Shown one piece after another: positions 6,081 through 54,136 of a DNA stretch of 64,000 nt. Below the pieces are notes generated by a model. The model was not told where the DNA came from and made no database searches. It worked only from the letters and a program-made list of their open reading frames with translations. Numbering within the stretch: the first letter of the stretch is position 1; every line of letters starts with the position of its first letter. The position numbers and the translations under genes were made by a program. Source of the DNA: Thermodesulfovibrionia bacterium (GTDB lineage Bacteria; Nitrospirota; Thermodesulfovibrionia; UBA6902); contig JAUSMY010000056.1 in assembly GCA_030646035.1 (NCBI GenBank), positions 5,481 to 69,480 on the forward strand, given 5' to 3'.

Positions 6081-7562
6081 TTAAAAAATAAAATAAATAA
6101 AAGATTTTCCTCCGATATCACCCAGAAATAGCAACGAGCATATTATGATATTTAGTAAACATAATTCCTTTATTGTTACATGGTTAATGTCCGCCTTATA
6201 ATAATACCTTTCAATCCAGTCGAACGTTTCATTTAAAAAGAAAAATATAAGTAATAATAAATATGTAATTAATTCAAGTTGAGAAATACCCTGTATTTTA
6301 AATATTGACCATAAGTTATATGTATCATTAGGAATAAGATCAGCAAGTGAGAACATATCAGACATGATAGTTTTGATTATATAGGTTGCACTTGTAAGAT
6401 TATTTGCTCGGAAGAAAATCCAGCCCAAAGAAACCAAATTAAAGGTTACAATTGTTTTAATTAACTTATGTAATTTATCATATTTATTTAAACCAATTTT
6501 CTCAGCAATATATTCTCTAACATTGGCAGTCATGACGCCAGACACATAAAATAGACCATGTATTGCTCCCCATATAACAAAGTTTAAACTTGCACCATGC
6601 CATAATCCACTAACTAAAAAAACAATCATTATATTTCTATACCATCTATAAGTAGATACAGTATTGCCACCTAGAGGAATATATATATAATCCTTAAACC
6701 AAGACATTAGCGTTATGTGCCATCTTTTCCAAAAATCTGCAATTGATGTTGCAAGGTAGGGTTTTTGGAAATTTTCTGATAGCCTGTATCCAAATAGTTG
6801 TGCTGTGCCAATAGCAATGTCACAGTATCCTGAAAAATCACAATATATTTGGAAGGCAAATATATATGTTGTAAGCAGGAAAGTAAATCCGTTATTCCCA
6901 TATGGATTGCCATAAACCAAATCAACTATTAAAGCTAATTTGTCAGCTATAACAATTTTTTTAAAAAGACCCCAAAGAATCCGTTTAACACCATTTAGAA
7001 CTGCATTTAAATTTATTGTCGGCAAGTTATTAAATTGAGGAAGCAAATTGTCTGCTCGTTCTATTGGCCCAGCAAGAAGTTTTGGGAAAAAGGAAATATA
7101 TAAGGCGAATTTACTGAACTGCTTTTCAGGAATATACTTCTTATTATATATATCAAGGCAGTATGAAATAGCTTGAAAAGTATAGAATGAGATACCAATG
7201 GGTAAAGTGATATTATGAATGTTGTAAAAAGATGGGATACCAAAAGAGGGAATTATAATTTTCACAAATCTCAAGAATAAATCTAAGTACTTAAAAATAA
7301 AGAGCAACCCTATATTTGAGAATAAAACAAAAAATAGCCAAAACTTCTTTTTGAGGCCTTCAGACGAAATAATTTTTTGACTACCTAAATAGGTTGTAAC
7401 CGTAGAAAATAGAATTAAAATTATGTATATTGGTTCCGAATAAACATAAAAGAAATAGCTTGCTACCAGAAGAATAATCCAACGACATTTAGAATTAACG
7501 AGAAAATAACATGCTAATACTATTGAAAGAAAGATTAAATATTCTGTAGAGTTAAATGGCAT
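6081..7562 (-). CDS. MBOAT-family membrane-bound O-acyltransferase (AlgI/DltB/PatA-like)
   Basis: Multi-pass membrane protein. It has the MBOAT signature FWKRWHITLMSWFKDYIYIPLGGN and the conserved His region WHGASLNFVIWGAIHG. Confidence 0.8.
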   Translation of the reverse strand: MPFNSTEYLIFLSIVLACYFLVNSKCRWIILLVASYFFYVYSEPIYIILILFSTVTTYLGSQKIISSEGLKKKFWLFFVLFSNIGLLFIFKYLDLFLRFVKIIIPSFGIPSFYNIHNITLPIGISFYTFQAISYCLDIYNKKYIPEKQFSKFALYISFFPKLLAGPIERADNLLPQFNNLPTINLNAVLNGVKRILWGLFKKIVIADKLALIVDLVYGNPYGNNGFTFLLTTYIFAFQIYCDFSGYCDIAIGTAQLFGYRLSENFQKPYLATSIADFWKRWHITLMSWFKDYIYIPLGGNTVSTYRWYRNIMIVFLVSGLWHGASLNFVIWGAIHGLFYVSGVMTANVREYIAEKIGLNKYDKLHKLIKTIVTFNLVSLGWIFFRANNLTSATYIIKTIMSDMFSLADLIPNDTYNLWSIFKIQGISQLELITYLLLLIFFFLNETFDWIERYYYKADINHVTIKELCLLNIIICSLLFLGDIGGKSFIYFIF

Positions 7563-7873
7563 GAATATTTTGGGGGGACTGTCTCAGCCAACTTCGCAAC
7601 CTCATTTATCCCCAGTAATAATTATATACGAATAATTAGTAAGAATTTATTAACGGATTTAGCTTTTATTAAAATTATATAAATCATAACTTTAATAGCT
7701 GAAATCTGTTAATTATATTCTGACGATTATGAAATTTATTGTGTTGCGCTGTTTGCATATTATTTTGATATGAGCTGGGCTTATCGTATAACATAAATAT
7801 TGAATATCCATAACTTGGTCGTTTTTATTGTTATTTGATGTTTTTGAGAAATTGTAACCTATCACTCCCCCCC

Positions 7874-7890
7874 CACGCCACAGCGTGTCA
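7874..7890. promoter_or_regulatory. 17-bp palindromic site CACGCCACAGCGTGTCA. Its inverted partner lies at 14417-14433. Candidate late-activator/operator site.
   Basis: It is an exact inverted repeat of 14417-14433 (TGACACGCTGTGGCGTG). Both copies sit upstream of the duplicated leader elements of two late transcription units. Confidence 0.45.
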
Positions 7891-7969
7891 TTATTTTTAA
7901 ACCATATCTTGAAAAATCCCTGTTATATCTCTATGATTTTATTTAGATAATCAAGTTATATACACTTTT

Positions 7970-8040
7970 GGAGGCACATGATGCCCGGTTCTCCGCTTAA
8001 TAGCGGGGCAGCCGGGCATTTTTTGTTATGGCTGAAAAAG
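7970..8040 (+). promoter_or_regulatory. Copy 1 of a duplicated roughly 70-nt leader element with an RBS, a GC-clamped hairpin and a U-run, running into the start codon of the first structural gene
   Basis: It is about 90% identical to 14641-14711. The hairpin is GCCCGG..(CCGCU UAAU AGCGG)..CCGGGC followed by T6. Two substitutions between copies keep the inner stem paired through G.U wobbles. Confidence 0.55.
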
Positions 8041-8918
8041 ATAACGCATCAACAGACAAAGAGAAAGAGCAGAAGCTGAGAGAGCTTTCCCCTGAAATGC
8101 TTCTTCTTAAGCTGAAGTCTAATGTTGCCAAGAAGCTGGCTGCCGGCGAGACAGGCCTCACCAATGACATCAAACAGATCCGTGACCTTGAAGAGACGTT
8201 AAAAAAGGCCTCAGGCGGAGATGCACCAGAGACGGAAGAATTCGGGATCCCTGAGCGTTTCAAGGTGAAGAGACGTTCTTATACATTGTCTAAGGCTGCT
8301 GTTGAGCAGAGGCGCAAGGCCCAGAAAAAAGCAACTGAGGCGATGCAGAAGCAAGGCGCCTCCACAGGGCCCAAGACTGATGCCGGCAAAAAAGCAAGCC
8401 GTCATAACGCATGGAAGCATGGCTCATATGCCGACAGCCTTTTCAGTCGCCTGACACGCCCCTGTAAAAAGACATGCCCTGATTATCCATGTGTCCTGAT
8501 CGAAGGCGGCAATACCGCCCCTGGACAACCCTGCATGGATGCAGAGTATCTGTACGAGGCATTTATGGCTATTCTCGATGCCGTCAAGAATAACAATTAT
8601 GACGACTTCAACAGTATGGCTGCACTGACTACATCTGCAAATATTCAGATACTCAGAAAGATGCAGGAAGCATTAATAGAGGACGGAGTTGTGGTCATGG
8701 GCGACAAGTTTGATAAAGATGGCACTGTTATCGGGCGTGAGCTCAAGGTCCATCCGGCAATCCCATATCTTGCAAAGCTTACAGAGGCGCTCGGCTTTAC
8801 TCCGAAGGATCTGAATATTACTCCAAGAGAGCTGGCAAAGGAGAAACAGGGCGATAAGTTCCATAAGACCCTTGCTGAGATGATGAGCGGAGTTCCAAGG
8901 AAAGAGGATAAAGAATGA
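8028..8918 (+). CDS. Phage terminase small subunit (P27-family-like)
   Basis: It is the first gene of the structural block and immediately precedes the large terminase, with an ATGA overlap. The C-terminal LTEALGFTPKDLNITPRELAK resembles the P27-family C-terminus. Confidence 0.45.
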   Translation: MAEKDNASTDKEKEQKLRELSPEMLLLKLKSNVAKKLAAGETGLTNDIKQIRDLEETLKKASGGDAPETEEFGIPERFKVKRRSYTLSKAAVEQRRKAQKKATEAMQKQGASTGPKTDAGKKASRHNAWKHGSYADSLFSRLTRPCKKTCPDYPCVLIEGGNTAPGQPCMDAEYLYEAFMAILDAVKNNNYDDFNSMAALTTSANIQILRKMQEALIEDGVVVMGDKFDKDGTVIGRELKVHPAIPYLAKLTEALGFTPKDLNITPRELAKEKQGDKFHKTLAEMMSGVPRKEDKE

Positions 8919-10774
8919 ATCCTCAGGTAATGGAGCCTATTGAGCTTGCTGATCTTAAAAAAGGGATACGTGTTCCTGAAGTTGATTTTGAGAAGTGGCT
9001 GCAAGCTCACGACTGGACATGGCATCAGCTCGCAAGGAACGAATTCCCTATGCCGTTTGAAAGCCTTGATCAATTCCAATTAGCCTGTATATGTGCAGAT
9101 CCTGTCTTATGGGTGCAGGCATTTCTGAGAGAGCCTGAGGATCCTGACCACAAGGAACCTTACAACCTTTTTGATTATCAGATAGAGTCACTGAGATATC
9201 CCGGGCATGCTATTCATGCTGATGCTGCCGAGGTTGGTAAAACAAGAGAGATCGTTGCCCTTGGTCTTCAGAAAGGGTTTACCACGCAAAACGGCTCCGG
9301 TCTGATCGGAGCTCCGATGCAGTCTCACCTTGACGAGATCATCGAGGCGATGGATGACCAGTTTACCTGGAACCCTGATCTTGGAGCCTGTAGGTGGCAC
9401 AGACGCCATAAGGACGGCTGGAAGAAACACCCGCATCATGCTTTTTACTTTACAAATGGTTTCAAGATCGATTTCAAGCCTTCAGGCGACAAAGGAATGG
9501 CATACAGGGGAGTGCATGCAAGGACCTTTGCATTTAAGGATGAAGGAGTGAAGGACAAAAACCCTGCGCAGTGGTCTGAGTTCTGGAGGGCGGTAAAGCC
9601 AAACTGTATCGTCAGGCTTTATTCCGTGCTGGATGGTGACCGCTCCTGTGATTTCTATAAGCTCAAAGAGAGAGCAAAGAGCACGAAGAAGGAAGAGGAG
9701 ATGAAGATCGATTCCTTAAAAGGCGCACAGGGGCATGTGAAGAATATCAAATTCAAGCTCTTTGTATGGCCAAAGACATTAATGCCGGTACCGTACTGGA
9801 CCCCTGAGAGGAAACAGTTCTATGTTGAGCAGTACGGCGGAGAGGACTCTGCCGGTTACAAACACAATGTCATGGCGCAGGACGGCGATCCTGAGAACTC
9901 TGTCTTCCCATGGACACAGTTCGGCCTCACGATCAAGGATGTCCCGGATTATCGATGTCTTAAGGTTCTTGTTGATTCAGGCAACAATGAGGTCATTGTT
10001 AACGGCTATAAGTGCGAGTATGTCCCAGGTGATGACGGTCCGGTGCCGAGGGTGATATCTCTTATTGATGAAACATACAAGGCATCGACCTTCTTTGATT
10101 TTAATGATGATAACGAATCGGAGTTCAGAAAGCTGATCAAGAGCTTTTTTATCTCGATCCCCGGCCTTAAGCGCGGCGGCGGTGACTTTGGTTTCAGCGG
10201 TGATCCTACTGAGTTATTAATAAAGAGCATCATCGGGAAAAAGGAACGGACAGTCGCACGTCTTCAGCTGAAGCATGTTACATATGACCAGCAATGCCAG
10301 GCGATTGATGCCATGGATGATGTTTACGGCCCCATCGAATCGATAATGTGGGGAACTGACTTTGGCAATGCCGGTTCAGCTGTTACTCATATACTTCAGG
10401 GTGAGCCCAGATACAGGCATAAGAATTACAGTCACAGGTTGAAAGGTTTTATGTTTGAATCAACGGCTGACAATATCAATGAGGCCGGCGAGCCGATAAT
10501 CGAGACAAAGACACAGAAGCCGGCAACGATAACGCTCAAGGAACTGGCAACAGATATCCTGGTCCAAAAGATGCAAAGGCAGGAGCTTGAATATCCTCCT
10601 GACCCTGATATGGTTTTGTTTTACCCAAACCATACGGTCAGACAGGGAGGAAAGCACCGCATATACAAAAAAGAAGATGATCATATTATTGACGCTGACA
10701 GGGTGCAGATATTGGCAAAGCTCTTTTCGGCAATGGTGGAAGACTATTTTTCATCCGGGAGTAATGTCCGATGA
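8915..10774 (+). CDS. Phage terminase large subunit
   Basis: 619 aa in the position between TerS and the portal. ADAAEVGKTRE is Walker-A-like. It is translationally coupled on both sides. Confidence 0.55.
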   Translation: MNPQVMEPIELADLKKGIRVPEVDFEKWLQAHDWTWHQLARNEFPMPFESLDQFQLACICADPVLWVQAFLREPEDPDHKEPYNLFDYQIESLRYPGHAIHADAAEVGKTREIVALGLQKGFTTQNGSGLIGAPMQSHLDEIIEAMDDQFTWNPDLGACRWHRRHKDGWKKHPHHAFYFTNGFKIDFKPSGDKGMAYRGVHARTFAFKDEGVKDKNPAQWSEFWRAVKPNCIVRLYSVLDGDRSCDFYKLKERAKSTKKEEEMKIDSLKGAQGHVKNIKFKLFVWPKTLMPVPYWTPERKQFYVEQYGGEDSAGYKHNVMAQDGDPENSVFPWTQFGLTIKDVPDYRCLKVLVDSGNNEVIVNGYKCEYVPGDDGPVPRVISLIDETYKASTFFDFNDDNESEFRKLIKSFFISIPGLKRGGGDFGFSGDPTELLIKSIIGKKERTVARLQLKHVTYDQQCQAIDAMDDVYGPIESIMWGTDFGNAGSAVTHILQGEPRYRHKNYSHRLKGFMFESTADNINEAGEPIIETKTQKPATITLKELATDILVQKMQRQELEYPPDPDMVLFYPNHTVRQGGKHRIYKKEDDHIIDADRVQILAKLFSAMVEDYFSSGSNVR

Positions 10775-12963
10775 TATTAAAAGCAGACGGCACGATCTAT
10801 GAGAGTAAAGCCGCGCCTGATGGAATAATCGCTATCTCACAGTTACGTCATAGCAGCCCTCAGGGTCCCATGACCGACTGGTTTAATAATTATGTCTTCA
10901 GAAAGATAGCAGGCGAGTTTTATGAGGTGCTCAGGGAAGGTATCCCAATAATTGATGCCGCCATTTCGCGGCTCATATCTCTTGAGGGGACGATCAAGAT
11001 AATCGGGGATAATGCGCAGCTTGTCAGAGAGCTTGAGGATTTTCATCGGAACATTCCTGTTGGTGATATGCAGACCGGCATAAATGCATTCCACAGAAAT
11101 ATGTCTAATGAGAAGTTTGAACAGGGCTTTGCTCTTCCTGAGATCGTAGCGACAAAAGACCTTAAAGATGTTCAGGAACTCAGGGTGCCTGACAGCAAGT
11201 ATATTATCTTCAGGAGAAACAAAGACGGCAGATCTGAACCCTGGTACCGTTATCCCGGAGACTCCCCTGCGCGGAGGCCGCAATATTATTCAACGCCTCT
11301 TAATATTATTCAGGAGATACTTACCGCCTCATACGGGCAGGCCGTTAATATTAACGGTGTAAATGAGGTGAAGCTGAATCCTGCCAATAAGATATATTTC
11401 TCCATGAACAATGAGAATACAGACCCGCACGGGGTATCTCTGATGCGCTCAATGGAGTTTTGCGCGAATATCCTTGTGACTCTTGAGAATGCGATGAAGA
11501 ACTCAGGCGACCGCTTTGGAGATCCTTCTTACCATATTCATTTGAAAGGCGCGAAGGCCGGCAACCAGACGGAGGTGGAGAGCAGAAGAAAGAAGCTTGA
11601 AGCAGATTTTACAACGGTCATAGAGACAAAGAGAGCGGGGCAGAGCGCTGATCTTGTTACAGCCGGAAGCGCAGATTCAGACGTCAGTGTATCTGTGATA
11701 GGACATGACGGACAGCTATTTAATTTTATGATACCGATCCGTCATGCAAGCGAGCAGATACTTGCAAAGACAGGCCTTGCCGCGTGGAGCGTCGGGCTTT
11801 ATTGGGGCGGAGCCGGAGGTAAAGCAAACATTGAGGCAGAGATGATGCTTGCCGATGCAAAGGTCAGAGGGGCAGAGATGCTCCCCGGATACATAAAGCT
11901 TTTTTCCACCTTCCTTCAATTAAGAGGCTATACATGGAAGAGCATTACTACTTCAGAGGATAAACCCGGGGACTGGGGTGTGGTCTTTGAAACTCCAAAC
12001 ATCCGCGACCTCGTCACAACAGCACAGGCAAGATTCCTAAATGCACAGGCAGATATGATGCAGAATAATGCCGGCATGATAGAAATCAACAGTCAAGCAA
12101 GCGTTGAAATAGGCGGCAATAAGTATCCGATAATAAAGGGTAAAACATGTGGATGTAAAAGCTATGCCGGCAAGGAATTTAAACGTCCCTTGTTTTGGCC
12201 TGACCTTGATGATCTTGAAACAAAATATGAGACAAAACTAAAAGATAAGTGGCGTGATTTTGAGAACAGGTCATACAGGATATTAAGTATCGACATGGAA
12301 GAGGTCATAAAATCTCCCGACAAATTTATTTTTACTGAGATACAAAAGAAGGATCTTGAGAAGGCGCTCGATAAATACTTAAAAGGTTTAAAGCTTGATG
12401 ACCTTCCTTATTATTATGGGCAGGCTTATTCACTCGGCTTGATAGCAGCTGCTTATGTGGTTCAGAAAGAGGATGAAGGGTTTGACCTGAAAGATATAGA
12501 TTCTATTCCTCCGCAGTCATCAATTGCGGCAGTCCCGATTCTGGACATCATAAAGAATAGAGAGATATTTGAAGATATTGTCAATTCCGGTTTTGATCTT
12601 GTAAAGGACAAAGCCACCAGCCGGATCAAGGATGAGATCATTACAGAGATAGAGAGCGCGGTAGCAGCGGGTAAAAATCCAAAGGAAGTGGCATCAATAC
12701 TTAAGGGTAAATTCAGCGATGCCAATTCAGACTGGGAGCGCCTTGCACGGAGTGAACTCTCCATGGCGGCAGAAAGGGCGAAGCTCGACGAATGGGGTGA
12801 GTGGGAGATTAAAGAGGTGGAGTTCGCTCCTGCACCTGATGCCTGCCCGATATGCAGGGCGCTTGCCGGTGATTATCCGATAGCGGACTGTCCGATACCG
12901 GTCAAAGATACACATCCAAGATGCCGGTGCAGCACAAGGCCTGCGGAGAGCGAAACGAGATAA
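10771..12963 (+). CDS. Portal protein fused to a Mu F-like/SPP1 gp7-like minor head morphogenesis domain
   Basis: 730 aa directly after TerL. The C-terminal CPICRALAGDY...DTHPRCRCSTRP matches the Phage_Mu_F C-terminal Cys/His motif. Confidence 0.6.
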   Translation: MILKADGTIYESKAAPDGIIAISQLRHSSPQGPMTDWFNNYVFRKIAGEFYEVLREGIPIIDAAISRLISLEGTIKIIGDNAQLVRELEDFHRNIPVGDMQTGINAFHRNMSNEKFEQGFALPEIVATKDLKDVQELRVPDSKYIIFRRNKDGRSEPWYRYPGDSPARRPQYYSTPLNIIQEILTASYGQAVNINGVNEVKLNPANKIYFSMNNENTDPHGVSLMRSMEFCANILVTLENAMKNSGDRFGDPSYHIHLKGAKAGNQTEVESRRKKLEADFTTVIETKRAGQSADLVTAGSADSDVSVSVIGHDGQLFNFMIPIRHASEQILAKTGLAAWSVGLYWGGAGGKANIEAEMMLADAKVRGAEMLPGYIKLFSTFLQLRGYTWKSITTSEDKPGDWGVVFETPNIRDLVTTAQARFLNAQADMMQNNAGMIEINSQASVEIGGNKYPIIKGKTCGCKSYAGKEFKRPLFWPDLDDLETKYETKLKDKWRDFENRSYRILSIDMEEVIKSPDKFIFTEIQKKDLEKALDKYLKGLKLDDLPYYYGQAYSLGLIAAAYVVQKEDEGFDLKDIDSIPPQSSIAAVPILDIIKNREIFEDIVNSGFDLVKDKATSRIKDEIITEIESAVAAGKNPKEVASILKGKFSDANSDWERLARSELSMAAERAKLDEWGEWEIKEVEFAPAPDACPICRALAGDYPIADCPIPVKDTHPRCRCSTRPAESETR

Positions 12964-13029
12964 AGGATAAGTGGAGCTATGAGATCAACCTTGAAGACGG
13001 GGAACTATACATAACCACTGGAGGATAAT

Positions 13030-13299
13030 GTGTCTGATACCTATGTAACAGAGGAACGGTTTAAGGATTATAAATTAGCAGTAGAAAAACTTTGTGATAC
13101 AAAACACAGCCCTCTTGGAAAAGATGTTGAATGCTTATTCGATAAACTTCGCGATAAAGCGGAGAAGAGCGATCTTGATAAAAAAGCAGATCAGACGGAG
13201 GTGGAAGGTTTGAAGGATAACGTCAAGAGTATTGATAGAAAATTCTGGGCGGTGATTCTTTTAGTGATCACAACGCTTATAGCTGTAATTCTCAAGTAA
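13030..13299 (+). CDS. XhlA-like lysis-associated protein (coiled coil with a C-terminal TM anchor)
   Basis: 89 aa with a charged coiled-coil N-terminus and a single C-terminal TM helix (FWAVILLVITTLIAVIL). It lies immediately upstream of the holin/endolysin. Confidence 0.4.
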   Translation: MSDTYVTEERFKDYKLAVEKLCDTKHSPLGKDVECLFDKLRDKAEKSDLDKKADQTEVEGLKDNVKSIDRKFWAVILLVITTLIAVILK

Positions 13300-13471
13300 T
13301 GAAGATCGGTAATGGAATAAAAGAAGTTGGGCTCAATGACATCTGTTGCAGATGCCGTGAGGTAAGTACCTGCCCCGATCTTGAAGCGATGAAGGAATTA
13401 CCGATAGTGAAGATATTATTTATGATCATCTGTAATAAAAAGGGGACTGATGAATAAAGGAGGATGCTGAT

Positions 13472-13927
13472 ATGGTATTGAGTGTATTCGGGACAGTGTT
13501 CGGGTTTTTGACTTCATTCGCACCTAATCTGCTGAAGTTCTGGCAGGATAAGCGGGATAAAGACCATGAGCTGAAAGTGATGGAGCTGCAGATGCAGGCT
13601 CAGGCTCAGGGACACATGGAAAGGCTTGAGGAGATTAATGCCGAGGCTGACATCGCAGAGAGCAAGGCGCTCTATCAATCTGCTCAGGTTACATTATCCG
13701 GTGTCAGCTGGGTTGATGCGACACTTACCTTTCTTAATTCCAGCGTACGCCCGATTATTACATATTCATTCTTTGGAGTTTACACATGGGTGAAGGCGGA
13801 ACAGTATGCAGTTGCAAATGATATTTCAAAGGTCTGGACAGCAGAAGACATGGCGATCTTTTGCACGATTATCAGTTTCTGGTTCGGGTCACGGAGCATG
13901 AGGTACTATTTTGGCAAGAAGTCATAG
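13472..13927 (+). CDS. Putative holin
   Basis: Small membrane protein with an N-terminal TM and a second hydrophobic segment. It sits directly upstream of, and overlaps, the endolysin gene. Confidence 0.4.
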   Translation: MVLSVFGTVFGFLTSFAPNLLKFWQDKRDKDHELKVMELQMQAQAQGHMERLEEINAEADIAESKALYQSAQVTLSGVSWVDATLTFLNSSVRPIITYSFFGVYTWVKAEQYAVANDISKVWTAEDMAIFCTIISFWFGSRSMRYYFGKKS

Positions 13928-14387
13928 AAAGACAACGCCAGCGGGGCGAAAGTTGATTAAGGATTTTGAGCAGTTTTCAACAACGCCTTATATCTGCCCG
14001 GCTGGTTATTGGACAATAGCATTCGGGCATTTAATAAGAAAAGGTGAAGTTTTCACATCTGTAACAGAAGAAGAGGGAGAGGCGATACTGGAAAAGGATT
14101 TATATACAGCAGAGAGGGCTGTCCTGAGATTAATAAGCGTGCCATTATCAGACTCACAGTTTGATGCTCTTGTATCATTTGTTTTTAACCTTGGCTCCGG
14201 CGCTTTACAGAGCAGCACGTTAAGAATGAAGATCAATCGCGGCGAATATTCTGCGGAAGTGGCGGTGCAGTTTATGCGATGGGTTTATGCCGGAGGGCGG
14301 AAATTAAATGGTCTTATTCGCAGGCGCCGGGCTGAGGCCGATATGTATTGCATGTCGGCAAATATGGGATTAAAACAGGCGGCATAA
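13911..14387 (+). CDS. Endolysin, GH24 phage lysozyme (T4 E/lambda R-like muramidase)
   Basis: LIKDFEQFSTTPYICPAGYWTIAFGHL matches the GH24 catalytic N-terminus (E...D...T motif). The downstream region LNGLIRRRRAE is typical of these enzymes. Confidence 0.75.
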   Translation: MARSHRKTTPAGRKLIKDFEQFSTTPYICPAGYWTIAFGHLIRKGEVFTSVTEEEGEAILEKDLYTAERAVLRLISVPLSDSQFDALVSFVFNLGSGALQSSTLRMKINRGEYSAEVAVQFMRWVYAGGRKLNGLIRRRRAEADMYCMSANMGLKQAA

Positions 14388-14416
14388 ATGGAGATGTTTC
14401 AAAGTAATTAAAAAAG

Positions 14417-14433
14417 TGACACGCTGTGGCGTG
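14417..14433. promoter_or_regulatory. Inverted copy of the 17-bp palindromic site at 7874-7890
   Basis: Exact reverse complement of 7874-7890. It lies 34 nt upstream of the com-like gene. Confidence 0.45.
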
Positions 14434-14466
14434 AACTTTTCTTTTAAAGCTGTTATAAATTAAGCA

Positions 14467-14625
14467 ATGAAAGAAAAGAAGCCCGCTGAATTACCTAATG
14501 TACGGTGCAAAAAATGCGGGAAGCTATTATTCAAAGGAGAGTTTACAGAGATAGAGGTCAAATGCCCCCGCTGCAATTTCTTACAGACCTTCAGGGGTGC
14601 TCAAGCACTTAAGAAAGCAAGCTAA
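14467..14625 (+). CDS. com: Com-like zinc-ribbon protein (phage Mu Com translational activator family). Small ORF missing from the six-frame track.
   Basis: 52 aa: MKEKKPAELPNVRCKKCGKLLFKGEFTEIEVKCPRCNFLQTF... It has CxxC-x16-CxxC and aligns with Mu Com as I remember it (RCKNCNKLLFKA...IEIRCPRCK). Confidence 0.6.
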   Translation: MKEKKPAELPNVRCKKCGKLLFKGEFTEIEVKCPRCNFLQTFRGAQALKKAS

Positions 14626-14640
14626 TACACCATAACCTAA

Positions 14641-14711
14641 AGAGGCACATGATGCCCGGTTCTCTGCTTAACAGTGGGGAAGCCGGGCATTTTTTATTAT
14701 GGCAGACAAAA
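14641..14711 (+). promoter_or_regulatory. Copy 2 of the duplicated leader hairpin element, immediately downstream of the com-like gene
   Basis: See 7970-8040. The hairpin is GCCCGG..(CUGCU UAAC AGUGG)..CCGGGC followed by T6. Confidence 0.55.
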
Positions 14712-14803
14712 AAGGGAAGACAGACAAGATAACGCAGAAGACTTCAGATGATGCTCTGAAGGATTTTAAAAGATCCGGGATTGAAGGAACAAAGAGCAGA
14801 TGA
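14699..14803 (+). CDS. 34-aa leader ORF translationally coupled (ATGA overlap) to the prohead protease/scaffold gene
   Basis: Its start lies inside the repeated element. Its N-terminus (MADKKGKTDK) parallels the TerS N-terminus (MAEKDNASTDK). The stop TGA overlaps the ATG at 14800. Confidence 0.35.
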   Translation: MADKKGKTDKITQKTSDDALKDFKRSGIEGTKSR

Positions 14804-15933
14804 AGATCACAAAAAATAAGATCCTTAAATCATTCGGCGCCAAAGCGGTTATAACCACTCCTGACGATACTCAGCTTGCGATCATAAACGGATTTACAAA
14901 GAGGGTATTTACGGCTGATGAGCTTTATGTGTCCCAGATACGTCTTGCTAATAATGCCATTGACCGTGACGGGGAGCGTTTCAGTGATGAGACACTACAG
15001 GGGTTTATCGATTCCGCAGTAAAGAAGACCTGGCTGCTTGATCATGATAAGAAGGTCAGGTCAGCGATAGGCAAGATCTTCGCAGTTGAGAAAGAGAGTA
15101 TGACCATAGAGGATGCGAAGAAGATCGACGAGAACATCGAACTTCCAGCAGGCATGAAGGAAGTTATCTTTTTCTCTCCATGGATATACATTCCGAAGAA
15201 AGGCATTAGCGATCAGGACCTCATTAAGATCGAGGCCGGTATCTATGACTTTGCTTCAATAGGATTCAGCGCCGACAAGCTGGCTCCGGTCAGGGATGAT
15301 GAGGAGAATATCCTTTACTGGGAATACAAGGGTGCGGGAAAGACAAATGAGGGCTCTTATGTTTATCTCGGGGCACAATATGGCGCAGCTTCAAAGACAG
15401 CTGATGACGATAAATTCAAGCATGAGAAACAAGGAGGAATTGAAAAGATGAAGGACCTTATCAAGAAGTTTAAGGAGATTTTCCAGAAGACCCTTTCAGA
15501 AGACGGATATATTCAGGAGATCGTTGATTTCGTCAAAGGGTTGAAGGACGAGATAACTGCAAAAGAGACAACGATATCTGATCATGAAAAGAAGATCAAG
15601 GAGCTTGGGCCGATGGCTGAGATCGGGCAGAAGGTGAAGGACAAGCTTGTTGAAGACGCAGTTCATTCCTCTACGCTTTTAGGCGAGATTGATAACACGG
15701 ACGATGCCAAGAAGAAAGAGACAGATTACCTCAAAGGTTGTTCCTTTGACCGCCTTCAAAAGACGCATGACAGCCTTTTGTTTAGGGCAAAAGAGAAGTT
15801 TCCAACAGACCCGGCATTTCAGTCAAAGGACAATGAAGACAGGGATAAAACCAAATCCCCTGCCGGCAGCAGCGGAGGGGAGAGCCCTCTAATAAAGAAC
15901 GCAAAAGAAAGAGCAGGAATAACTGACAAATAA
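14800..15933 (+). CDS. Prohead protease fused to a coiled-coil scaffold-like C-terminus
   Basis: It sits upstream of the decoration and capsid genes. The N-terminal half is globular with a LLDHD motif. The C-terminal half is low-complexity and charged (KMKDLIKKFKEIFQ..., ...KIKELG) like scaffolding domains. Confidence 0.45.
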   Translation: MKITKNKILKSFGAKAVITTPDDTQLAIINGFTKRVFTADELYVSQIRLANNAIDRDGERFSDETLQGFIDSAVKKTWLLDHDKKVRSAIGKIFAVEKESMTIEDAKKIDENIELPAGMKEVIFFSPWIYIPKKGISDQDLIKIEAGIYDFASIGFSADKLAPVRDDEENILYWEYKGAGKTNEGSYVYLGAQYGAASKTADDDKFKHEKQGGIEKMKDLIKKFKEIFQKTLSEDGYIQEIVDFVKGLKDEITAKETTISDHEKKIKELGPMAEIGQKVKDKLVEDAVHSSTLLGEIDNTDDAKKKETDYLKGCSFDRLQKTHDSLLFRAKEKFPTDPAFQSKDNEDRDKTKSPAGSSGGESPLIKNAKERAGITDK

Positions 15934-15951
15934 AGTAAGGAGGCCATTGCA

Positions 15952-16749
15952 ATGAAGCTGACAAAAAGAGAGAAGAGGAAGTTTTCACTTATGGGGTTGA
16001 TCGTGATTACCCTCATCATGGTTATGGGGATCGGGATTGTCGGAGTGGTTGCGCCTAAAGCGCTTGCCGTTTTGCCGCTTATAGGTATCGCACTTGGGAT
16101 TGCCTATGCAGAGGGCAATTATCTGAGCGATGTTTTACTGAAGGAGGCTGATGATAGGGTCTCCCGGGAGAAAGTGACGGTCATATCAGGACAGAATCTT
16201 TTAATCGGCGCAATAGTCGGGAAGATCACAAAAGCGCTTGGGGCGATCACAGCTGATGCAGACAACACCGGTAATGGAACATGTACAGGCGTTACGATGG
16301 GGGCTGACGCATTGCTCGGCACTTATACGATTGAATGCATTACTGCTGTTGAAAATGGCGGGAAATTCAAGGTTATAAACCCACTCGGCAATGCCTTGCC
16401 GGATGCAACTGTTGCAGTTGCTTATGTGAACGATCAGATTAATTTTACAGTCAATGACGGAGCCACGGACTTTATCGTTGGTGATAAGTTCACTATCGTT
16501 GTTGGTGCCGGCAGCGGGAAGGTCACACAGCTTGCTCCTGCCGCGATTAACGGCTCACAGAATGCTTACGGCATGCTGACATCTGCGATTGATGCAAGTT
16601 CCGCAGATGTGGAAGGAGTAGCTATCGTCAGAGATGCCGTGCTAAAGAGTTTGGGTATCGTATGGCCGGCGGGCATAACGGAACCACAAAAGGCTGCTGC
16701 ATTGGCAGAGCTTGAAGCAAAACTTGTTACCACAAGGGAGGGGGTATAA
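15952..16749 (+). CDS. Head decoration protein (lambda gpD-like) with an unusual N-terminal double-TM extension
   Basis: It lies immediately upstream of the lambda E-like capsid gene. The C-terminal 120 aa are Gly/Ala/Val-rich and resemble decoration proteins. Two N-terminal hydrophobic helices are atypical. Confidence 0.4.
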   Translation: MKLTKREKRKFSLMGLIVITLIMVMGIGIVGVVAPKALAVLPLIGIALGIAYAEGNYLSDVLLKEADDRVSREKVTVISGQNLLIGAIVGKITKALGAITADADNTGNGTCTGVTMGADALLGTYTIECITAVENGGKFKVINPLGNALPDATVAVAYVNDQINFTVNDGATDFIVGDKFTIVVGAGSGKVTQLAPAAINGSQNAYGMLTSAIDASSADVEGVAIVRDAVLKSLGIVWPAGITEPQKAAALAELEAKLVTTREGV

Positions 16750-16752
16750 ACC

Positions 16753-17766
16753 ATGTTTGTCAACTTAGCGAAAGATCCTGCATTTAATGTCGCCTCACTT
16801 TCACAGGCGATAAACATCCTGCCGAATAACTACGGCAAAGTGAGAGAGATGAACCTCTTCCCGTTCAAGGGAGTGAGGACGAGAGTTATATATGTTGAAG
16901 AACAGAATGGCGTTCTCAACTTATTGCAGACACAGCCGATCGGGGCGCCGGGAGATGCCGGAATAAGCGGCAAGCGTAAAGTGAGGTCATTTGTAATACC
17001 TCATATCCCGCATGACGATGTTGTGCTTCCTGAAGAAGTTGAAGGCGTCAGGGCATTCGGCGCTGAACAGGATGTGCTCAAGACCATAGCAGATGCAGTC
17101 AATGAGAAACTTCAGAGCATGAAGAATAAGCATTCCATAACGCTTGAGCATCTGCGCATGGGTGCTCTCAAGGGGATAATCCTTGATGCCGACGGTTCAA
17201 CCCTCTACAACCTCTATACCGAGTTTGAGATAGAGGCCAAGGAGATAGATTTTGTTCTCGGCACTGCAACCACAAAGGTCATCAACAAGTGCAATGAGCT
17301 TGCGAGACATCTTGAAAAGAATCTTAAGGGTGAGGTCATGAACGGAATACATGCCTTCGTGTCTCCTGAGTTCTTTGACAAGCTGACGAATCATGCGACA
17401 GTCAAAGAAGCATATGCCAGATGGCAGAACGGCGAGGCGCTCCGGTCTGACATGAGAAAGGGTTTCAGGTTCGGCCCGATCATGTTTGAGGAGTATATCG
17501 GTGAAGCGACCGACAAGGCCGGTAACGTAAGGAAGTTCATCACGGCTGAAGAAGGGCATGCGTTCCCGACAGGGACGAATGACACATTCAAGACCTTCTG
17601 TGCTCCTGCTGACTTTAATGAGACCGTCAATACCATTGGCCAGCCGATCTACGCCAAGATCTCAGAGCGTAAGCATGGGAGAGGCTATGATCTCCATACA
17701 CAGAGCAACCCGCTGCCGCTCTGTGCAAGGCCGGGAGTCCTTGTGAAGGTCAAGTCAAGCAATTAA
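16753..17766 (+). CDS. Major capsid protein (lambda gpE-like family)
   Basis: 337 aa. The N-terminus MFVNLAKDPAFNVASLSQAINILPNNYGKVREMNLFPFKGVRTRVIYVEEQ resembles the phage major capsid protein E family. A strong intrinsic terminator follows the gene. Confidence 0.65.
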   Translation: MFVNLAKDPAFNVASLSQAINILPNNYGKVREMNLFPFKGVRTRVIYVEEQNGVLNLLQTQPIGAPGDAGISGKRKVRSFVIPHIPHDDVVLPEEVEGVRAFGAEQDVLKTIADAVNEKLQSMKNKHSITLEHLRMGALKGIILDADGSTLYNLYTEFEIEAKEIDFVLGTATTKVINKCNELARHLEKNLKGEVMNGIHAFVSPEFFDKLTNHATVKEAYARWQNGEALRSDMRKGFRFGPIMFEEYIGEATDKAGNVRKFITAEEGHAFPTGTNDTFKTFCAPADFNETVNTIGQPIYAKISERKHGRGYDLHTQSNPLPLCARPGVLVKVKSSN

Positions 17767-17789: not shown

Positions 17790-17823
17790 AGGGGCGGGCG
17801 GTTTACCGCCTGCCCTTTTTTAT
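17790..17823 (+). terminator. Rho-independent terminator after the capsid gene
   Basis: GGGGCGGGCGG-tttac-CCGCCTGCCC stem followed by TTTTTTT. Confidence 0.7.
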
Positions 17824-19226: not shown

Positions 19227-19529
19227 ATGCCATTACCTCATATATCAACAAGTAAAAGGAAGACAGGAGTTTTAGAGTATTTCACAACTGATGACCCTAA
19301 TATATTTGTTCGCCAGGCAACAGTTGAAGACGAAATACATCTTGATAAATTGAATGCGATGATTGAAGAATTGCAATCACTTAACATAGAGGAACTTTCT
19401 ATCCCTGAAGATACCTCTGATGTAGCAATCAAAATTATAGAATCAGAAAACATAGTCATCAGGAATAATCAGGAAAGGGTTTTATCATTGCCTGCACTTT
19501 TCGCAATCAGAGAAGTAATAGAGGGTTAA
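19227..19529 (+). CDS. Hypothetical phage structural protein
   Basis: Good RBS (ACGGAGGAG). No recognisable motif. Confidence 0.3.
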   Translation: MPLPHISTSKRKTGVLEYFTTDDPNIFVRQATVEDEIHLDKLNAMIEELQSLNIEELSIPEDTSDVAIKIIESENIVIRNNQERVLSLPALFAIREVIEG

Positions 19530-22500
19530 TGGCAATCACATTTCCATCAACACAGAGAAATATTTTAATTACTGGTTACTCAGCAGTCACTCCATGTACG
19601 ATGGCTGATATTTACAATGCTGACATCGCAGCCGTAAATGGCAGGCAGTTATATACTGGCGCGGCTTCTGGAAGTCCATTCTCTATTTCTCTCGGAACAC
19701 AGACTTTTGGCTTGGTTACAACTCAACCGTGGGTAGCTGATAGTCATGGAGTCCAATTAAAGATAACATGCACAGCAAGGGCAGGAGCTACACTTGCATT
19801 GACTGGAAAGAATAGATCTGGAGAGACAGTTACGGAAACAGGAATTGATATTTCAAGCGGTTCTGCAATCACTATTAAAAAATATTTCACTCTTGATACT
19901 AATGGAATAGTTTTCACAGGATTAAGTAATGGCGATACCATAACTATTAAACAAGACCGTTGGGGAGTGGTTAGTAAAATCCAGCAAACATATCCTTATT
20001 GTGTCAATACAAAATACTGGATGTGCGAAGGCGGAATACAGATTGGTGATTATTCTTCAACGCCTGGGAACTTTGCTTCTACTAATGAACTTTTCTTTTT
20101 CCCCGGGAATCATGGGTTCGCTATTGGCTCAAATCCAGCAGGTAGTTTTGTCATAGGTTCTCTGTCTAATGGGCTTCCATCTGAAGGATCCGTCATTGTT
20201 CATGACTCAAATGGACAAAATTCAAATGCTATAGGCGTAGGTAATGACTCTGGTATAACTGGGAATATTACTATTTATGACACTGCAATAAAACACTTAA
20301 ACAGGTCATTAGCCTATGGCGGATGTTATGTAGGAAATTATGGTGGCACAGTTATCCTAAAGGGAATACATGCTAATGGTTGTGTAGTTCAATCAGGTGC
20401 ATACACCATCGATGATATCTGTATATATAGAAGCTCATCTGGTGGAATAGGCGGAGGCAATGGTTCAGTTATATCCAATGCCAGAGTTCATAACAGCCTT
20501 TCTGGATATTCTATGGCAGGACAAGGATTGTCTGATTTTGTTACGGGAGTAGTTTTAGATGGTACACATAGTACGGAATATCTATTGGCTTATGCAGGCC
20601 AATCTCCAACCACCGCCCGGCTTAATGATTGTGTTCATGGAGACAACAAGATAAAGGCTAATGGGCCAAGTAATATTTACAGGACAACCTATGTAGATAT
20701 TTTAATTAATGATATTTTGGGCAATCCCATTAGTGGAGCAGCTTGTCTCATCAAGGATATGGATGGGAATATCGTATCCTACAATCTGAGTATATCTACA
20801 AATGCGATAACAGTTCTATCATCTGCTATAGACATAGTCGCTTCTACGAGCTGGCTGACTTTTGGCTTTGCAGTCGGAGATGTCATTGTTCAAGATGCAG
20901 AATTTATGCTTATCACAGCTATTGGCGGCACAGGCAATAAAACTGCAACTGTAACAAGAGGATACTATCCAAAATATCCAGCTGTGTATCATTATTCAAG
21001 AATTATTTATAAAGCCGGTTCAGCACTTTCAAATGCCAGTGGATTTGTCCCTCAACAAATCATTCCATTGAAGAGATATTTACAGCAGCAAGGTGGAATA
21101 GAAGGTGCAGGACTTGCTACCACTTATAAAGACCACACAATAATAATCAGCAAACAGGGATATTCGACTTATCAAGATGTAATCACTTTTGCCGAGAATG
21201 ATTTAACAGGACAGGATTTAGAGATATCACTTTCTGTTTATCCAAATATAAATTTCTATACACAGTCAAATCAAAACAGGATAGGTGGGAATATCATGGA
21301 TATAAAAAAGAACGAGGCTGACGCAACCAAAAGAAGAGTTCCTATAGTCTGTGTTGATGCCGCTGACTTTGCAACTCCAGAACCAGGCGAGGCTGGAGGT
21401 CAAGCACAGAAGAGTATTAATAAAGGAGTATGGACAAATACGGCTGGAACATTAGTTCTTGTTGATGCAGCAAGTGGAAGTTATTATGTCGAATATACTC
21501 AAGCAGAAGTAAATGGCAATGACCTTGATACAATTGATACCCGATATAAGTCTGCCAATACAGCTTATACTTACGGCCCCACCGTTCAAATAAAAGCAAA
21601 GGGATTAAGTGATGTAGTTGCTGATATCGCCGCAGTATCTGGACAGGTATTGAATGTAGAAGACAAGGTTGATCTTATTGATAATATTGTCGATTCTGTA
21701 AAGACCGAGACTGATAAGATCGCCGGAGTCAAAGCAAAGACAGATAATATCCCAGTATCACCAGCAACAGAGGGGAATGTTTCTGCAGTAGGTGAAACTG
21801 TTGTTGCGGTAGGTAATGCAGTTGTAACAATTGACGGCATAGTTGATGCCATTAAAGCCAAGACCGATAATCTGCCTGATGATCCCGCAAGCGATACGAA
21901 TGTTAATGCCAATGAGGCCAAGATCGATACGGCCATTACAAATATAGCAATCCTCGACGGCAAGGTAGTTGTAGTTGACGGGATCGTGGATACGATTGTT
22001 ACCGAGACAAATAAGATAGCAGCTATTAAGACTGAGACTGACAAGATCGCTGGGGTGCAGGCTGATATAGCGACACTCGATGATAAGGTTGTCACCGTGG
22101 ACGGCGAAGTGGGAACGATAGATGCACTTGTTGATGCCATAAAGGCTAAGACCGATAACCTGCCGACTGACCCTGCAAGTGATACGAACGTTAATGCCAA
22201 TGAGGCCAAGATCGATACGGCCATTACAAATTTAGCAACGCTCGACGGCAAGGTAGTTATAGTTGACGGCATCGTTGATGCAATTAAGACTGAGACTGAT
22301 AAGATCGCTGGAGTGAAGACTGATATAGCGACTCTCGATGACAAGGTTGTCACAGTGGACAGCAAGGTGGGAACGATAGATGCGCTTGTTGATGCCATAA
22401 AGGCAAAGACCGATAACCTGCCAGTTGATCCCGCAAGCGATACGAATGTTAATGCCAATGAGGTCAAGATCGATACGGCCATTACAAACATAGCAACCCT

Positions 22501-23176
22501 CGACGACAAGGTAGTCGTTGTTGACGGCATCGTGGATGAGATTGTTACCGAGACAAATAAGATAGCAGCTATTAAGACCGAGACTGATAAGATCGCTGGA
22601 GTGAAGACTGATATAGCGACTCTTGATGACAAGGTTGGCACAATGGACAGTAAGGTTGAAACGATAGATGCGCTTGTTGATGCCATAAAAGCCAAGACTG
22701 ATAATCTGCCCGCTGATCCTGCAAGTGATACGAACGTCAATGCCAACGAGACGAAAATTGATGCAATCGCATCAGCTATATCTACCCTCGACGGGAAAGT
22801 TGTTACCCTTGTCAGCGGTGTGGCAAACAATTCCAGGACAGTAGTGGATAGTAAACCACAGGAGATTACACGGGGCGATGAAGTCCTGTTTACTATTTAT
22901 CTTAGTACATCGTGGAATTTGACAGGGAAAAAGGTGCACTTCATGGCGAAGGCTGACAAAGATGCTGCTGATTCTACCGCCATATTTAATGTGGTTTGTA
23001 CTGTCGGAGCTGCGTCCGGCGGGCTGATTCCTTGCACCTACACGCTTACTCCGGCACAGACTGCGATAAAAGGGAAATATTATGCCGAGGCTGAGGTGCG
23101 GAATACGGACGGATCATCACCTCAGACCGCGAAAGAGTTCCCGCTCATAATAAGAAATGACGTCAGAAAAGGATAA
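19529..23176 (+). CDS. Large virion protein with an N-terminal right-handed beta-helix (tailspike/depolymerase-like) and C-terminal tandem coiled-coil-like repeats. Possible fibre or neck appendage.
   Basis: The N-terminal 600 aa are Gly/Asn/Ser-rich with periodic hydrophobics typical of pectate-lyase-like beta-helices. Residues about 690-1090 consist of 96/86/96-aa near-identical repeats. Confidence 0.5.
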   Translation: MAITFPSTQRNILITGYSAVTPCTMADIYNADIAAVNGRQLYTGAASGSPFSISLGTQTFGLVTTQPWVADSHGVQLKITCTARAGATLALTGKNRSGETVTETGIDISSGSAITIKKYFTLDTNGIVFTGLSNGDTITIKQDRWGVVSKIQQTYPYCVNTKYWMCEGGIQIGDYSSTPGNFASTNELFFFPGNHGFAIGSNPAGSFVIGSLSNGLPSEGSVIVHDSNGQNSNAIGVGNDSGITGNITIYDTAIKHLNRSLAYGGCYVGNYGGTVILKGIHANGCVVQSGAYTIDDICIYRSSSGGIGGGNGSVISNARVHNSLSGYSMAGQGLSDFVTGVVLDGTHSTEYLLAYAGQSPTTARLNDCVHGDNKIKANGPSNIYRTTYVDILINDILGNPISGAACLIKDMDGNIVSYNLSISTNAITVLSSAIDIVASTSWLTFGFAVGDVIVQDAEFMLITAIGGTGNKTATVTRGYYPKYPAVYHYSRIIYKAGSALSNASGFVPQQIIPLKRYLQQQGGIEGAGLATTYKDHTIIISKQGYSTYQDVITFAENDLTGQDLEISLSVYPNINFYTQSNQNRIGGNIMDIKKNEADATKRRVPIVCVDAADFATPEPGEAGGQAQKSINKGVWTNTAGTLVLVDAASGSYYVEYTQAEVNGNDLDTIDTRYKSANTAYTYGPTVQIKAKGLSDVVADIAAVSGQVLNVEDKVDLIDNIVDSVKTETDKIAGVKAKTDNIPVSPATEGNVSAVGETVVAVGNAVVTIDGIVDAIKAKTDNLPDDPASDTNVNANEAKIDTAITNIAILDGKVVVVDGIVDTIVTETNKIAAIKTETDKIAGVQADIATLDDKVVTVDGEVGTIDALVDAIKAKTDNLPTDPASDTNVNANEAKIDTAITNLATLDGKVVIVDGIVDAIKTETDKIAGVKTDIATLDDKVVTVDSKVGTIDALVDAIKAKTDNLPVDPASDTNVNANEVKIDTAITNIATLDDKVVVVDGIVDEIVTETNKIAAIKTETDKIAGVKTDIATLDDKVGTMDSKVETIDALVDAIKAKTDNLPADPASDTNVNANETKIDAIASAISTLDGKVVTLVSGVANNSRTVVDSKPQEITRGDEVLFTIYLSTSWNLTGKKVHFMAKADKDAADSTAIFNVVCTVGAASGGLIPCTYTLTPAQTAIKGKYYAEAEVRNTDGSSPQTAKEFPLIIRNDVRKG
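21600..22800 (+). repeat. Intragenic tandem DNA repeats of 288/258/288 bp plus flanking degenerate units, above 90% identical, inside the 1215-aa gene
   Basis: Units start at 21842, 22130, 22388 and 22676 (VDAIKAKTDNLP.DPASDTNVNANE.KIDTAITN...). The 288-bp units carry an internal 30-bp duplication (TETNKIAAIK/TETDKIAGVK). The minus-strand 414-aa ORF here is a repeat artefact. Confidence 0.85.
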
Positions 23177-54083: not shown

Positions 54084-54136
54084 TTTGACATAGGTAAGGG
54101 GAACTTCGGTTCCCCTTACATCTATGGGTTTAAACA

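Follow-up and report, generated by a model that had tools for sequence, protein, structure and literature searches.

Results

A leader repeated before two late operons

The stretch analysed here (the window) comprises 64,000 nt of contig JAUSMY010000056.1 (GCA_030646035.1), from a Thermodesulfovibrionia metagenome-assembled genome; in the prophage that it carries, a leader element is present twice, once before the packaging operon and once before the head operon, and the second copy follows directly on com, a gene encoding a 52-aa CxxC...CxxC zinc ribbon of the Mu Com family (14467-14625). All features are on the + strand unless stated otherwise. By repeat search and alignment the copies form a direct repeat (7971-8039 and 14642-14710) in which 62 of 69 bases are the same; a first-pass annotation of the window correctly reported two copies of about 90% identity, but counted six differences where alignment gives seven (copy-1 positions 7994, 8001, 8004, 8009, 8025, 8033 and 8036), and overlooked com, which is key to the element. 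Identity ends abruptly 5' of a GAGGCAC sequence and fades a few codons inside the downstream open reading frames (ORFs). As had been noted, each copy runs through a U tract into a gene start: U6 (8019-8024) then GUU (to 8027) precede the ATG at 8028 of a 296-aa terS-like ORF, and U6 (14690-14695) then AUU (to 14698) precede the ATG at 14699 of a 34-aa ORF.

As + strand RNA, copy 1 folds into a single continuous 17-bp stem (7981-8019) with a UAAU loop and a bulged C8009 (A in copy 2), extended by a G.U pair between 7980 and 8020; the hairpin of copy 2 (14651-14691) has two G.U wobbles and a bulged A14680. A hairpin had been described before, and folding finds one, but not as a GC clamp with a separate 5-bp inner stem. 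The fold energies are -34.8 (copy 1) and -28.3 kcal/mol (copy 2), with z = -4.7 and -3.3, respectively, and none of 200 shuffles equalled them; the minus-strand folds are weaker (-22.4 and -17.8 kcal/mol). Two of the differences between the copies lie in the stem (C7994-G8005 to U.G, and G7995-C8004 to G.U) and the remaining two hairpin differences are in the loop and the bulge, such that all four are structure-neutral (chance p ~0.007 under uniform substitution, 0.04 under strong transition bias). The wobbles preserve pairing, as the earlier description had it, but they are two one-sided changes in adjacent pairs and not compensatory covariation. The window copies alone are thus modest evidence for an RNA structure, and the strong evidence comes from other genomes.

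On the transcribed strand, both copies consist of a GC-rich stem-loop directly followed by a U tract, i.e. they have the form of intrinsic terminators. The AUG codons are 8 nt past the stem, outside it, and are without a Shine-Dalgarno (SD) sequence of their own. No third site was found in the window, even under relaxed search rules.

A Com-type box overlapping the base of the terminator-like hairpin

The com product matches PF10122 (Zn_ribbon_Com) at 38.2 bits (E = 1e-9; cut-off 22.9) and phrog_6417 'translational regulator' (5.5e-11), and is 54% identical to Mu Com across residues 5-36, the finger region (tblastn); the Com proteins of B3 and KS5 were also matched. Its four zinc-coordinating cysteines, with CxxC-x15/16-CxxC spacing, are N-terminal (VRCKKCGKLLFKGEFTEIEVKCPRC) and align with those of Mu Com and seven others, and there is no long C-terminal tail. 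No Pfam match to an Ogr/Delta-type zinc-finger activator was found at E <= 0.01.

The conserved GAGGCAC and the GAUGCC that follows it can pair as a 4-bp hairpin, GA-GGCA-[C NN GA]-UGCC-C, here termed P1. In copy 1 (7971-7986) it is composed of GA (7971-72), GGCA (7973-76), the loop CAUGA (7977-81), UGCC (7982-85) and C (7986); P1 of copy 2 (14642-14657), which starts 16 nt after the com stop codon, is identical. Mu Com has been shown by experiment to be an RNA-binding protein: its 19-mer target in mom mRNA, GA-AUGC-[CUGCGA]-GCAU-CCC, is beside the hairpin of the translation-inhibition structure (TIS) that Com melts, systematic evolution of ligands by exponential enrichment (SELEX) gave the consensus GAGNNCC(N)2-3GAGNNCC, the designed binder RNA I has the form GA-GAAC-[CAGAGA]-GUUC-CGG, and the footprinted contact is the loop GA (PMC6483171). 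The window box, GA-GGCA-[CAUGA]-UGCC-CGG, has the layout of the Mu target and matches 8 of the 10 specified positions of the bipartite SELEX motif. The two departures are C to A and G to U; both bases pair to close the loop, so that the closing C-G has become A-U. The GGAGG/AGAGG sequence that had been taken for an SD is present in both copies, but is really the 5' half of the Com-type box; an SD reading is unsupported, because in other phage loci (L004, L171, L176, L181 and L186; see below) the box is 27-70 nt or more 5' of start codons that have their own SD. No Rfam 15 family overlaps the element in window positions 7000-16000, even at E <= 10.

The 3' arm of P1 overlaps the base of the long stem at 7981-7985. 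P1 is weak on its own (-3.2 kcal/mol in copy 1; -2 to -5 kcal/mol across the related sites described below). In the free folds the long stem abuts the U tract; enforcing P1 costs 3-11 kcal/mol and removes the 2-6 pairs beside the U tract, leaving a residual stem that stops 2-4 nt before it (11 nt in L255). A weak alternative hairpin overlapping the 5' arm of a terminator, as in the ribonucleic antiterminator (RAT) targets, is thereby present, and the overlap of P1 and terminator, as modelled by folding, has the arrangement of a protein-dependent antiterminator.

Relatives of the prophage

Only three homologues of the terS-like protein were found. One locus, L004, has com and two sites in the two positions seen in the window. 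Site a (GAGGCAC-N9-GAUGCCC, hairpin, U5) is 5' of terS, and site b follows a Com-like ORF and precedes homologues of the small ORF and of the 377-aa gene that begins the window head operon. The inner stems of the two L004 copies are fully different, with complementarity kept in each, and the downstream genes have their own SD, 27 and 65 nt beyond the hairpin. In L002 and L086 the order is box, a 41-49-nt insert, hairpin, then terS, with GGCC/GGCC in one exchanged for GGUC/GACC in the other. The possibility that GAGGCAC is a transcript start or promoter element was considered and rejected: it is at ~+2 to +10 in L002 and L004 but at ~+27 in the window, and linkage to com fits better.

No com is present in the 21.8 kb of L007, and the stem at its site has two mismatches near the base that are not compensated; the loop is altered as well. 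In the position of com, the promoter segment TATAAATTAAGCAAT, which the window and L007 have in common upstream of com or its former place, runs straight into a CCGGGCUUUUUU remnant, and it looks as though a deletion took out com together with the 5' half of the second site. A decayed site in a com-less genome is as expected if the terminator is intolerable without Com. The same locus (13867-14020) also encodes a mini zinc ribbon of 24 aa (MNVRCPYCGEIYEPDFGLCPRCRN), which overlaps the portal stop codon and is followed by the com-type promoter segment, running into ACCGGGCUUUUUUG.

A further ~140 loci, retrieved via the 619-aa protein of the packaging operon, are without the element and without com. 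In most of the 17 terS-upstream regions read (~15 loci) a conserved promoter-like motif is instead present directly before terS.

The element and com in unrelated phages

Viral contigs were scanned from the RNA side with the pattern GAGGCAC-N0-30-GATGCCC-N14-40-GGGYWTTTT. Fourteen loci were returned, nine of which represent seven distinct real elements, each with a perfect but different stem; the matches in L165, L166, L170, L172 and L177 form a single family in which GAGGCAC is coding sequence before an ordinary terminator, and are chance matches. A Com-like ORF is directly upstream, on the same strand, in L164, L169/L173/L175, L171 and L176; the PF10122 cut-off of 22.9 is exceeded by those of L164, L169 and L171, with L176 just below at 21.4 bits. 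Profile searches located com 330 nt 5' of the element in L174, and in L168 com adjoins a second site with P1 arms GGCU/AGCC. In all, the composite element is present in at least 12 other phage contigs, and com is on the same contig in 8 of the 10 genomes found through the GAGGCAC box. L167 (81-407) encodes a MuF-like minor head protein that carries, fused to its C terminus, a Com-like CxxC-x15-CxxC ribbon (EVRCPECNRK...MKCRRCKHEW), and this contig also has a Com-box terminator before head protease and capsid genes.

Other searches were less productive. A first pattern scan (ATGATGCCCGG...CCGGGCATTTTT) had L001 as its sole match, an unrelated convergent-gene terminator; blastn of the leader against cultured phages gave chance matches only; locus searches in viral contigs with the terS-like or the 377-aa protein singly found nothing; and a word-indexed protein search with Com returned only itself.

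The converse, protein-side locus search was made with a 4-member Com alignment, an 8-member alignment being too divergent, and gave 57 distinct com genes. Long-tailed Mu-like Coms overlap methyltransferase or mom genes, as they do in Mu, B3, Chuche and KS5. By contrast, all four short environmental Coms have P1, a hairpin and U6-9 within 30-250 nt downstream, with P1 arms GGCU/AGCC (L181 and L186), GGGC/GCCC (L250) and GUGC/GCGC (L255); across the relatives the box varies as GAGGCU, GAGGGC and GAGUGC, each still complementary to its partner. In L181, L186 and L250 a promoter of TTGACA...TAAAAT type is predicted between com and the site, and the terminator would therefore be promoter-proximal. 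Since com was found from the RNA side and the element from the protein side, the association holds both ways.

The genes behind the element include head protease/capsid genes, putative terS and endolysin, and homologues of the 377-aa gene follow it in L004, L171 and L176. Most of these genes have a free SD of their own, exposed 15-70 nt past the hairpin in L004a, L004b, L171, L176, L181, L186, L167 and L169. A tract of U5-U9 abuts the stem in all 16 related sites. Additional Com-box-like hairpins without a terminator are present shortly 5' of the main site in L168 (5195-5210 and 12109-12126) and, at 30-60 nt from it, in L181, L186 and L250; they read GA-GCGG-[CUUUUGA]-CCGC-C, GA-GCAG-[CUUAGUGA]-CUGC-C, GA-GCGA-[UUCGA]-UCGC-C and GA-GCGC-[UUCGA]-GCGC-C, and may be second Com-binding sites. 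The window copies are without such an extra upstream hairpin.

It could be argued that the elements are ordinary intrinsic terminators, duplicated or recombined between module boundaries, with com nearby by coincidence. A stem followed by a U tract is indeed generic, L001 and the L165 family were matched as plain gene-end terminators, and the homology of the window copies reaches weakly into the N-terminal codons of both ORFs. However, the 15-nt box, which is outside the stem, is conserved or covarying in unrelated phages and co-occurs with com in searches from either side, a relaxed box-plus-terminator search gave 13 distinct matches compared with 0-1 in shuffled loci, and the terminator of the window capsid gene (17792-17815) has no Com-type box; coincidence thus appears distinctly improbable.

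Covariation and strand asymmetry

The first-pass annotation had proposed that related phage genomes be searched for the element, and in these it recurs with both helices covarying. Among 12 distinct P1 variants (including Mu and RNA I), pairing is 100%, all four pairs show compensatory changes, and none of 500 shuffles was as good; for the base helix of the long stem in 13 sites, pairing is 97%, four of eight pairs are compensatory, and again none of 500 shuffles was as good, although these shuffle statistics are optimistic (see Discussion). Unpaired cells in the base helix occur only in L007 and L168b. Of 15 related sites, 14 have a sense fold more stable than the antisense fold, and G.U pairs (1-7) are present in all of the sense folds.

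These results bear out the previous view of an RNA-level element rather than a DNA site. The NCBI product name 'Com family DNA-binding transcriptional regulator' and the nearness of the box to predicted promoters could be taken to indicate a DNA operator, recognised by a DNA-binding Com. That is very improbable given the strand asymmetry and G.U pairs just described, the constant orientation of the element with its downstream genes, hairpin arms that covary with no fixed DNA sequence, and the experimental evidence that Com binds RNA (PMC6483171).

A mini-ORF beginning AUGAUG (MMPGS...) is, as previously reported, present in both window copies, and a role as a leader peptide or in recoding can be envisaged, with coupling to the main ORF via a -1 slip on U UUU UUG or a split SD of the T4 gene 38 type. 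GGAGG is 3-6 nt 5' of AUGAUG, the main ORF is in the -1 frame, which is open from 8004 onward, and three of five differences within the mini-ORF are synonymous. Conservation of the peptide does not, however, extend to other phages: one copy of L004 encodes MPCPT* and the other a peptide of 19 aa, L164 has MPRLT*, and the GAAGCC sites are without any AUG. The apparent conservation in the window is due to the box, stem and U tract. There is no stimulatory structure 3' of the slippery run, and with the hairpin closed the SD is still ~14 nt from the AUG, making this explanation extremely improbable.

Genomic context and other features of the window

The packaging operon has the order terS-like gene (8028-8918), 619-aa protein and portal-MuF; the labels 'TerS' and 'TerL' are by position, in the case of terS together with a homologue that has a weak match to PF05119 (Terminase_4). 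The 619-aa protein (8915-10774) sits where the large terminase is expected, and had no match in Pfam, PHROG, NCBIfam or PDB sequences; it has >300 metagenome homologues at 55-70% identity, with a conserved Walker-A-like GAEVGKTRE and a DEA motif. An endolysin gene (PF00959; 13911-14387), with small upstream ORFs, lies between the portal-MuF gene and com and not at the end of the late region. Beyond copy 2, the 34-aa ORF (MADKKGKTDKITQK...; 14699-14803) matches the N-terminal part of a 97-aa L004 protein (59% identity over 29 aa, E = 1e-9) and is followed by the first large gene of the head operon, encoding a 377-aa head protease/scaffold-like protein (phrog_16951; 14800-15933), then by genes for a decoration protein (HDPD domain) and the major head protein (16753-17766).

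Upstream of copy 1 is a candidate sigma-70-like promoter, TTGAAA-N17-TATGAT (7909-7937; 10 of 12 consensus matches), predicted in a consensus scan that overall showed no enrichment over shuffles; L004 has TTGAAA-N17-TAAAAT at an equal distance from an inverted copy of the family motif described next. In L008-L025 (e.g. L014 9240-9300) the motif AAAAA[AT][GA]TGACA-N5-CTGCCAG[AC] is ~60-90 nt 5' of terS, with a -10-like TGTTAT, TGATAT or TGATAA 18 nt on and the terS ATG(GCAGA) 9-10 nt later. It looks like a conserved activator-type late promoter, with two TGnCA half-sites one helical turn apart, which would yield a nearly leaderless terS mRNA. In the window this arrangement (14411-14469) stands before com rather than terS, a predicted promoter-like motif, AAAAAAGTGACA-N5-TGGCGT-N18-TGTTAT (14411-14456), ending 10 nt before the com ATG. 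The motif, including a small hairpin (CACGC-TGTG-GCGTG), is also present inverted 5' of copy 1 (7872-7898, compared with 14407-14436); on the minus strand it reads TGACA-N5-TGGCGT-N18-TACAAT and faces an MBOAT O-acyltransferase gene (6081-7562, minus strand) that, on this basis, may be phage cargo under the control of a late-type promoter. The equivalent leftward motif in L004 points at a helix-turn-helix regulator gene.

Another leader variant, without a Com box, is present in L005 (40-88) and ~60-100 nt 5' of terS in L016, L017 and L018. The transcript would start with AGCCUC(C), followed by an inner hairpin, and end with GGAGGCU-U3-7-AUG, a layout in which the SD pairs with the transcript 5' end and which could be a separate way of gating terS.

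Two further repeat features of the window are away from the leaders. Imperfect tandem repeats of ~258-300 nt, 62-86% identical (21659-22691), are inside a 1215-aa ORF (19529-23176), which probably encodes a tape-measure or fibre protein. Repeated CxxCH-coding segments (families D5, D7 and D8) are common to two adjacent paralogous ORFs of 363 and 392 aa (52992-55315), which look like host multihaem cytochromes outside the prophage.

Discussion

The co-occurrence of a covarying box, a terminator-like hairpin and com in unrelated phages makes it very probable that the leader is a conserved RNA structure linked to Com. From its anatomy, conservation and linkage to com, which are observed, we infer both binding and the direction of its effect: Com probably binds P1, given the likeness of P1 to the Mu target, and the output is proposed to be antitermination, i.e. 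the element would be a Com-dependent antiterminator rather than a translational operator, a reading to which a probability of about 0.6 is assigned. Of the functions offered by the first-pass annotation (translational operator, attenuator or processing site), attenuator fits best.

The leader, on this proposal, is a composite of P1, which Com can bind, a GC-rich hairpin that reuses the UGCC of P1 at its base, and U6, the latter two being terminator-like. When Com is absent, the long hairpin would form completely up to the U tract, such that transcripts end before terS at copy 1 and, at copy 2, com transcripts end just past com, before the head operon. The family-type promoter (14411-14456) would drive com, with early com transcripts stopping at copy 2. 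Com would lock the weak P1 co-transcriptionally, as P1 leaves the polymerase; the 2-6 bp beside the U tract would then be lost and the polymerase would read through to the packaging and head genes. Accumulated Com would open both copy 2 (head) and copy 1 (packaging, behind TTGAAA-N17-TATGAT at 7909-7937). In this way a single small protein, translated from a short initial transcript, would license two late operons, with one site for each.

The main alternative, or companion, mechanism is translational control as in Mu, in which the hairpin would block the AUG 8 nt on and Com at P1 would open it, with transcription unaffected. Translational activation is the sole documented activity of Com (PMC6483171). 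The window ORFs begin 8 nt after the stem without their own SD, in L164 and L255 an AUG is also right behind the U tract, and enforcing P1 leaves the 13 nt 5' of the window AUG single-stranded; it is thus plausible that opening the stem base also benefits translation at the window copies. As the whole explanation, translational control nonetheless seems unlikely. No site has an SD or start codon within the stem, the next genes in L004a, L004b, L171, L176, L181, L186, L167 and L169 have their own exposed SD, and an invariant U5-U9 tract after a GC-rich stem would be unexplained. The free SD of most downstream genes is the reason for reading the element as an antiterminator rather than as a translational operator, and termination is further favoured by the presence of U5-9 at every site, including the 11 found without requiring a U tract, and by the promoter-proximal position of the terminators in L181, L186 and L250 and, by prediction, in copy 1 and L004.

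Com might also act in the opposite direction, promoting termination, or protecting or processing the 3' end of a short transcript of the leader or of com. A hairpin with a U tract makes a stable 3' end, and the position of copy 2 and several other sites directly behind com makes autoregulation of com mRNA conceivable. P1 and the stem base are, however, mutually exclusive, such that binding to P1 should weaken, not strengthen, the terminator; copy 1, L004a and L168a are far from com, in the leaders of other operons; and the decay of the hairpins in com-less L007 fits a terminator that needs Com to be overcome. An effect in this direction is considered improbable, and antitermination remains the preferred reading.

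Several points weigh against antitermination by Com. Mu Com is documented only as a translational activator (PMC6483171), and where the AUG comes straight after the U tract with no SD (the window, L164 and L255) a translational role fits too. The window box has the core AC(N)2GAU with an A-U closing pair, compared with CC(N)2-3GAG and C-G in the SELEX motif; the loop is 12 nt in L004, and 41-49 nt separate the two box halves in L002 and L086. The contigs of L002 and L086 are too short to show com, and the Com-like domain of L167 is marginal (E = 0.016). The pattern scan demanded TTTT, so that only the 11 sites found otherwise give an unbiased view of the U tract, and the promoters were called by consensus match alone. 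Complementarity played a part in recognising some P1 variants and this, together with the hand-trimming of the helix alignments, makes the shuffle statistics optimistic.

The likeness to the Mu com-mom system is evident in that the regulator belongs to the same family (PF10122), com is just 5' of a target, and the target has the order GA, 4-bp stem, loop C/U...GA, C, then a second hairpin to be opened. The differences are substantial. Here the second hairpin consists of a long GC stem with U5-9 behind it and contains neither SD nor start codon, and P1 overlaps its base, whereas in Mu the two abut; the loop-closing pair is A-U, U-A or C-G, compared with an invariant C-G in the Mu type. Instead of overlapping its target gene, com has an intergenic element and then head genes behind it, the targets are head, packaging, portal and lysis genes and not a DNA-modification gene, and each genome has two sites, one of which acts in trans. 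As judged from sequence, two defining com-mom features, sequestration of the SD/start and overlap with a DNA-modification gene, are therefore lacking.

In the BglG/SacY/LicT proteins with RAT, and in HutP and GlpP, a protein stabilises a weak hairpin that shares sequence with the 5' arm of an intrinsic terminator, with a site for each terminator. The logic of a weak protein-stabilised hairpin opposed to a terminator is shared with the element described here, but the fold of Com is unrelated, being a ~50-aa zinc ribbon without a PRD or ligand-sensing domain, and Com is phage-encoded and would be a developmental timer rather than a nutrient sensor. The lambdoid Q protein is loaded via a DNA site at the promoter and makes the polymerase processively termination-resistant, and N uses boxB and Nus factors. 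With these systems the present one has in common a promoter-proximal terminator before late morphogenesis genes and the need for a small phage protein; by contrast, each terminator here has its own overlapping RNA site, which suggests local, non-processive action and would account for the duplication.

Com has been studied for more than 30 years as the regulator of a single gene, mom. Com-like genes beside other genes have been noted before, but to our knowledge no target or mechanism for them has been described. In Pseudomonas, Com-like genes precede llpA bacteriocin, tailocin lysis and levansucrase genes, their role being 'to be explored' (PMC6240691). Those genes resemble the present case in that Com homologues are tied to genes other than DNA modification; they differ in that no RNA site or terminator coupling is described for them, and no description of the composite element was found in that work or in the other literature searched.

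The results provide orphan Com genes with a concrete conserved candidate RNA target and a testable mechanism, in which a hairpin locked by a protein competes with the stem base of a terminator, and suggest that whole morphogenesis operons can depend on a Com element. The signature GA-N4-[C/U]N2-5GA-N4'-C plus terminator can be used to annotate late-operon leaders in uncultured phages, and a very small (40-60 aa) protein with its RNA could serve as an orthogonal antitermination switch. A broader proposal, the case for which is at present evenly balanced, is that short Com-family zinc ribbons are a widespread, unrecognised class of hairpin-specific antiterminators that time phage late genes (packaging, head, portal and lysis). 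If true, phages would have a third kind of late-gene switch in addition to the Q-type and activator-type ones, and Com would go from being a single-gene translational activator to a regulon-level, RNA-acting transcription factor.

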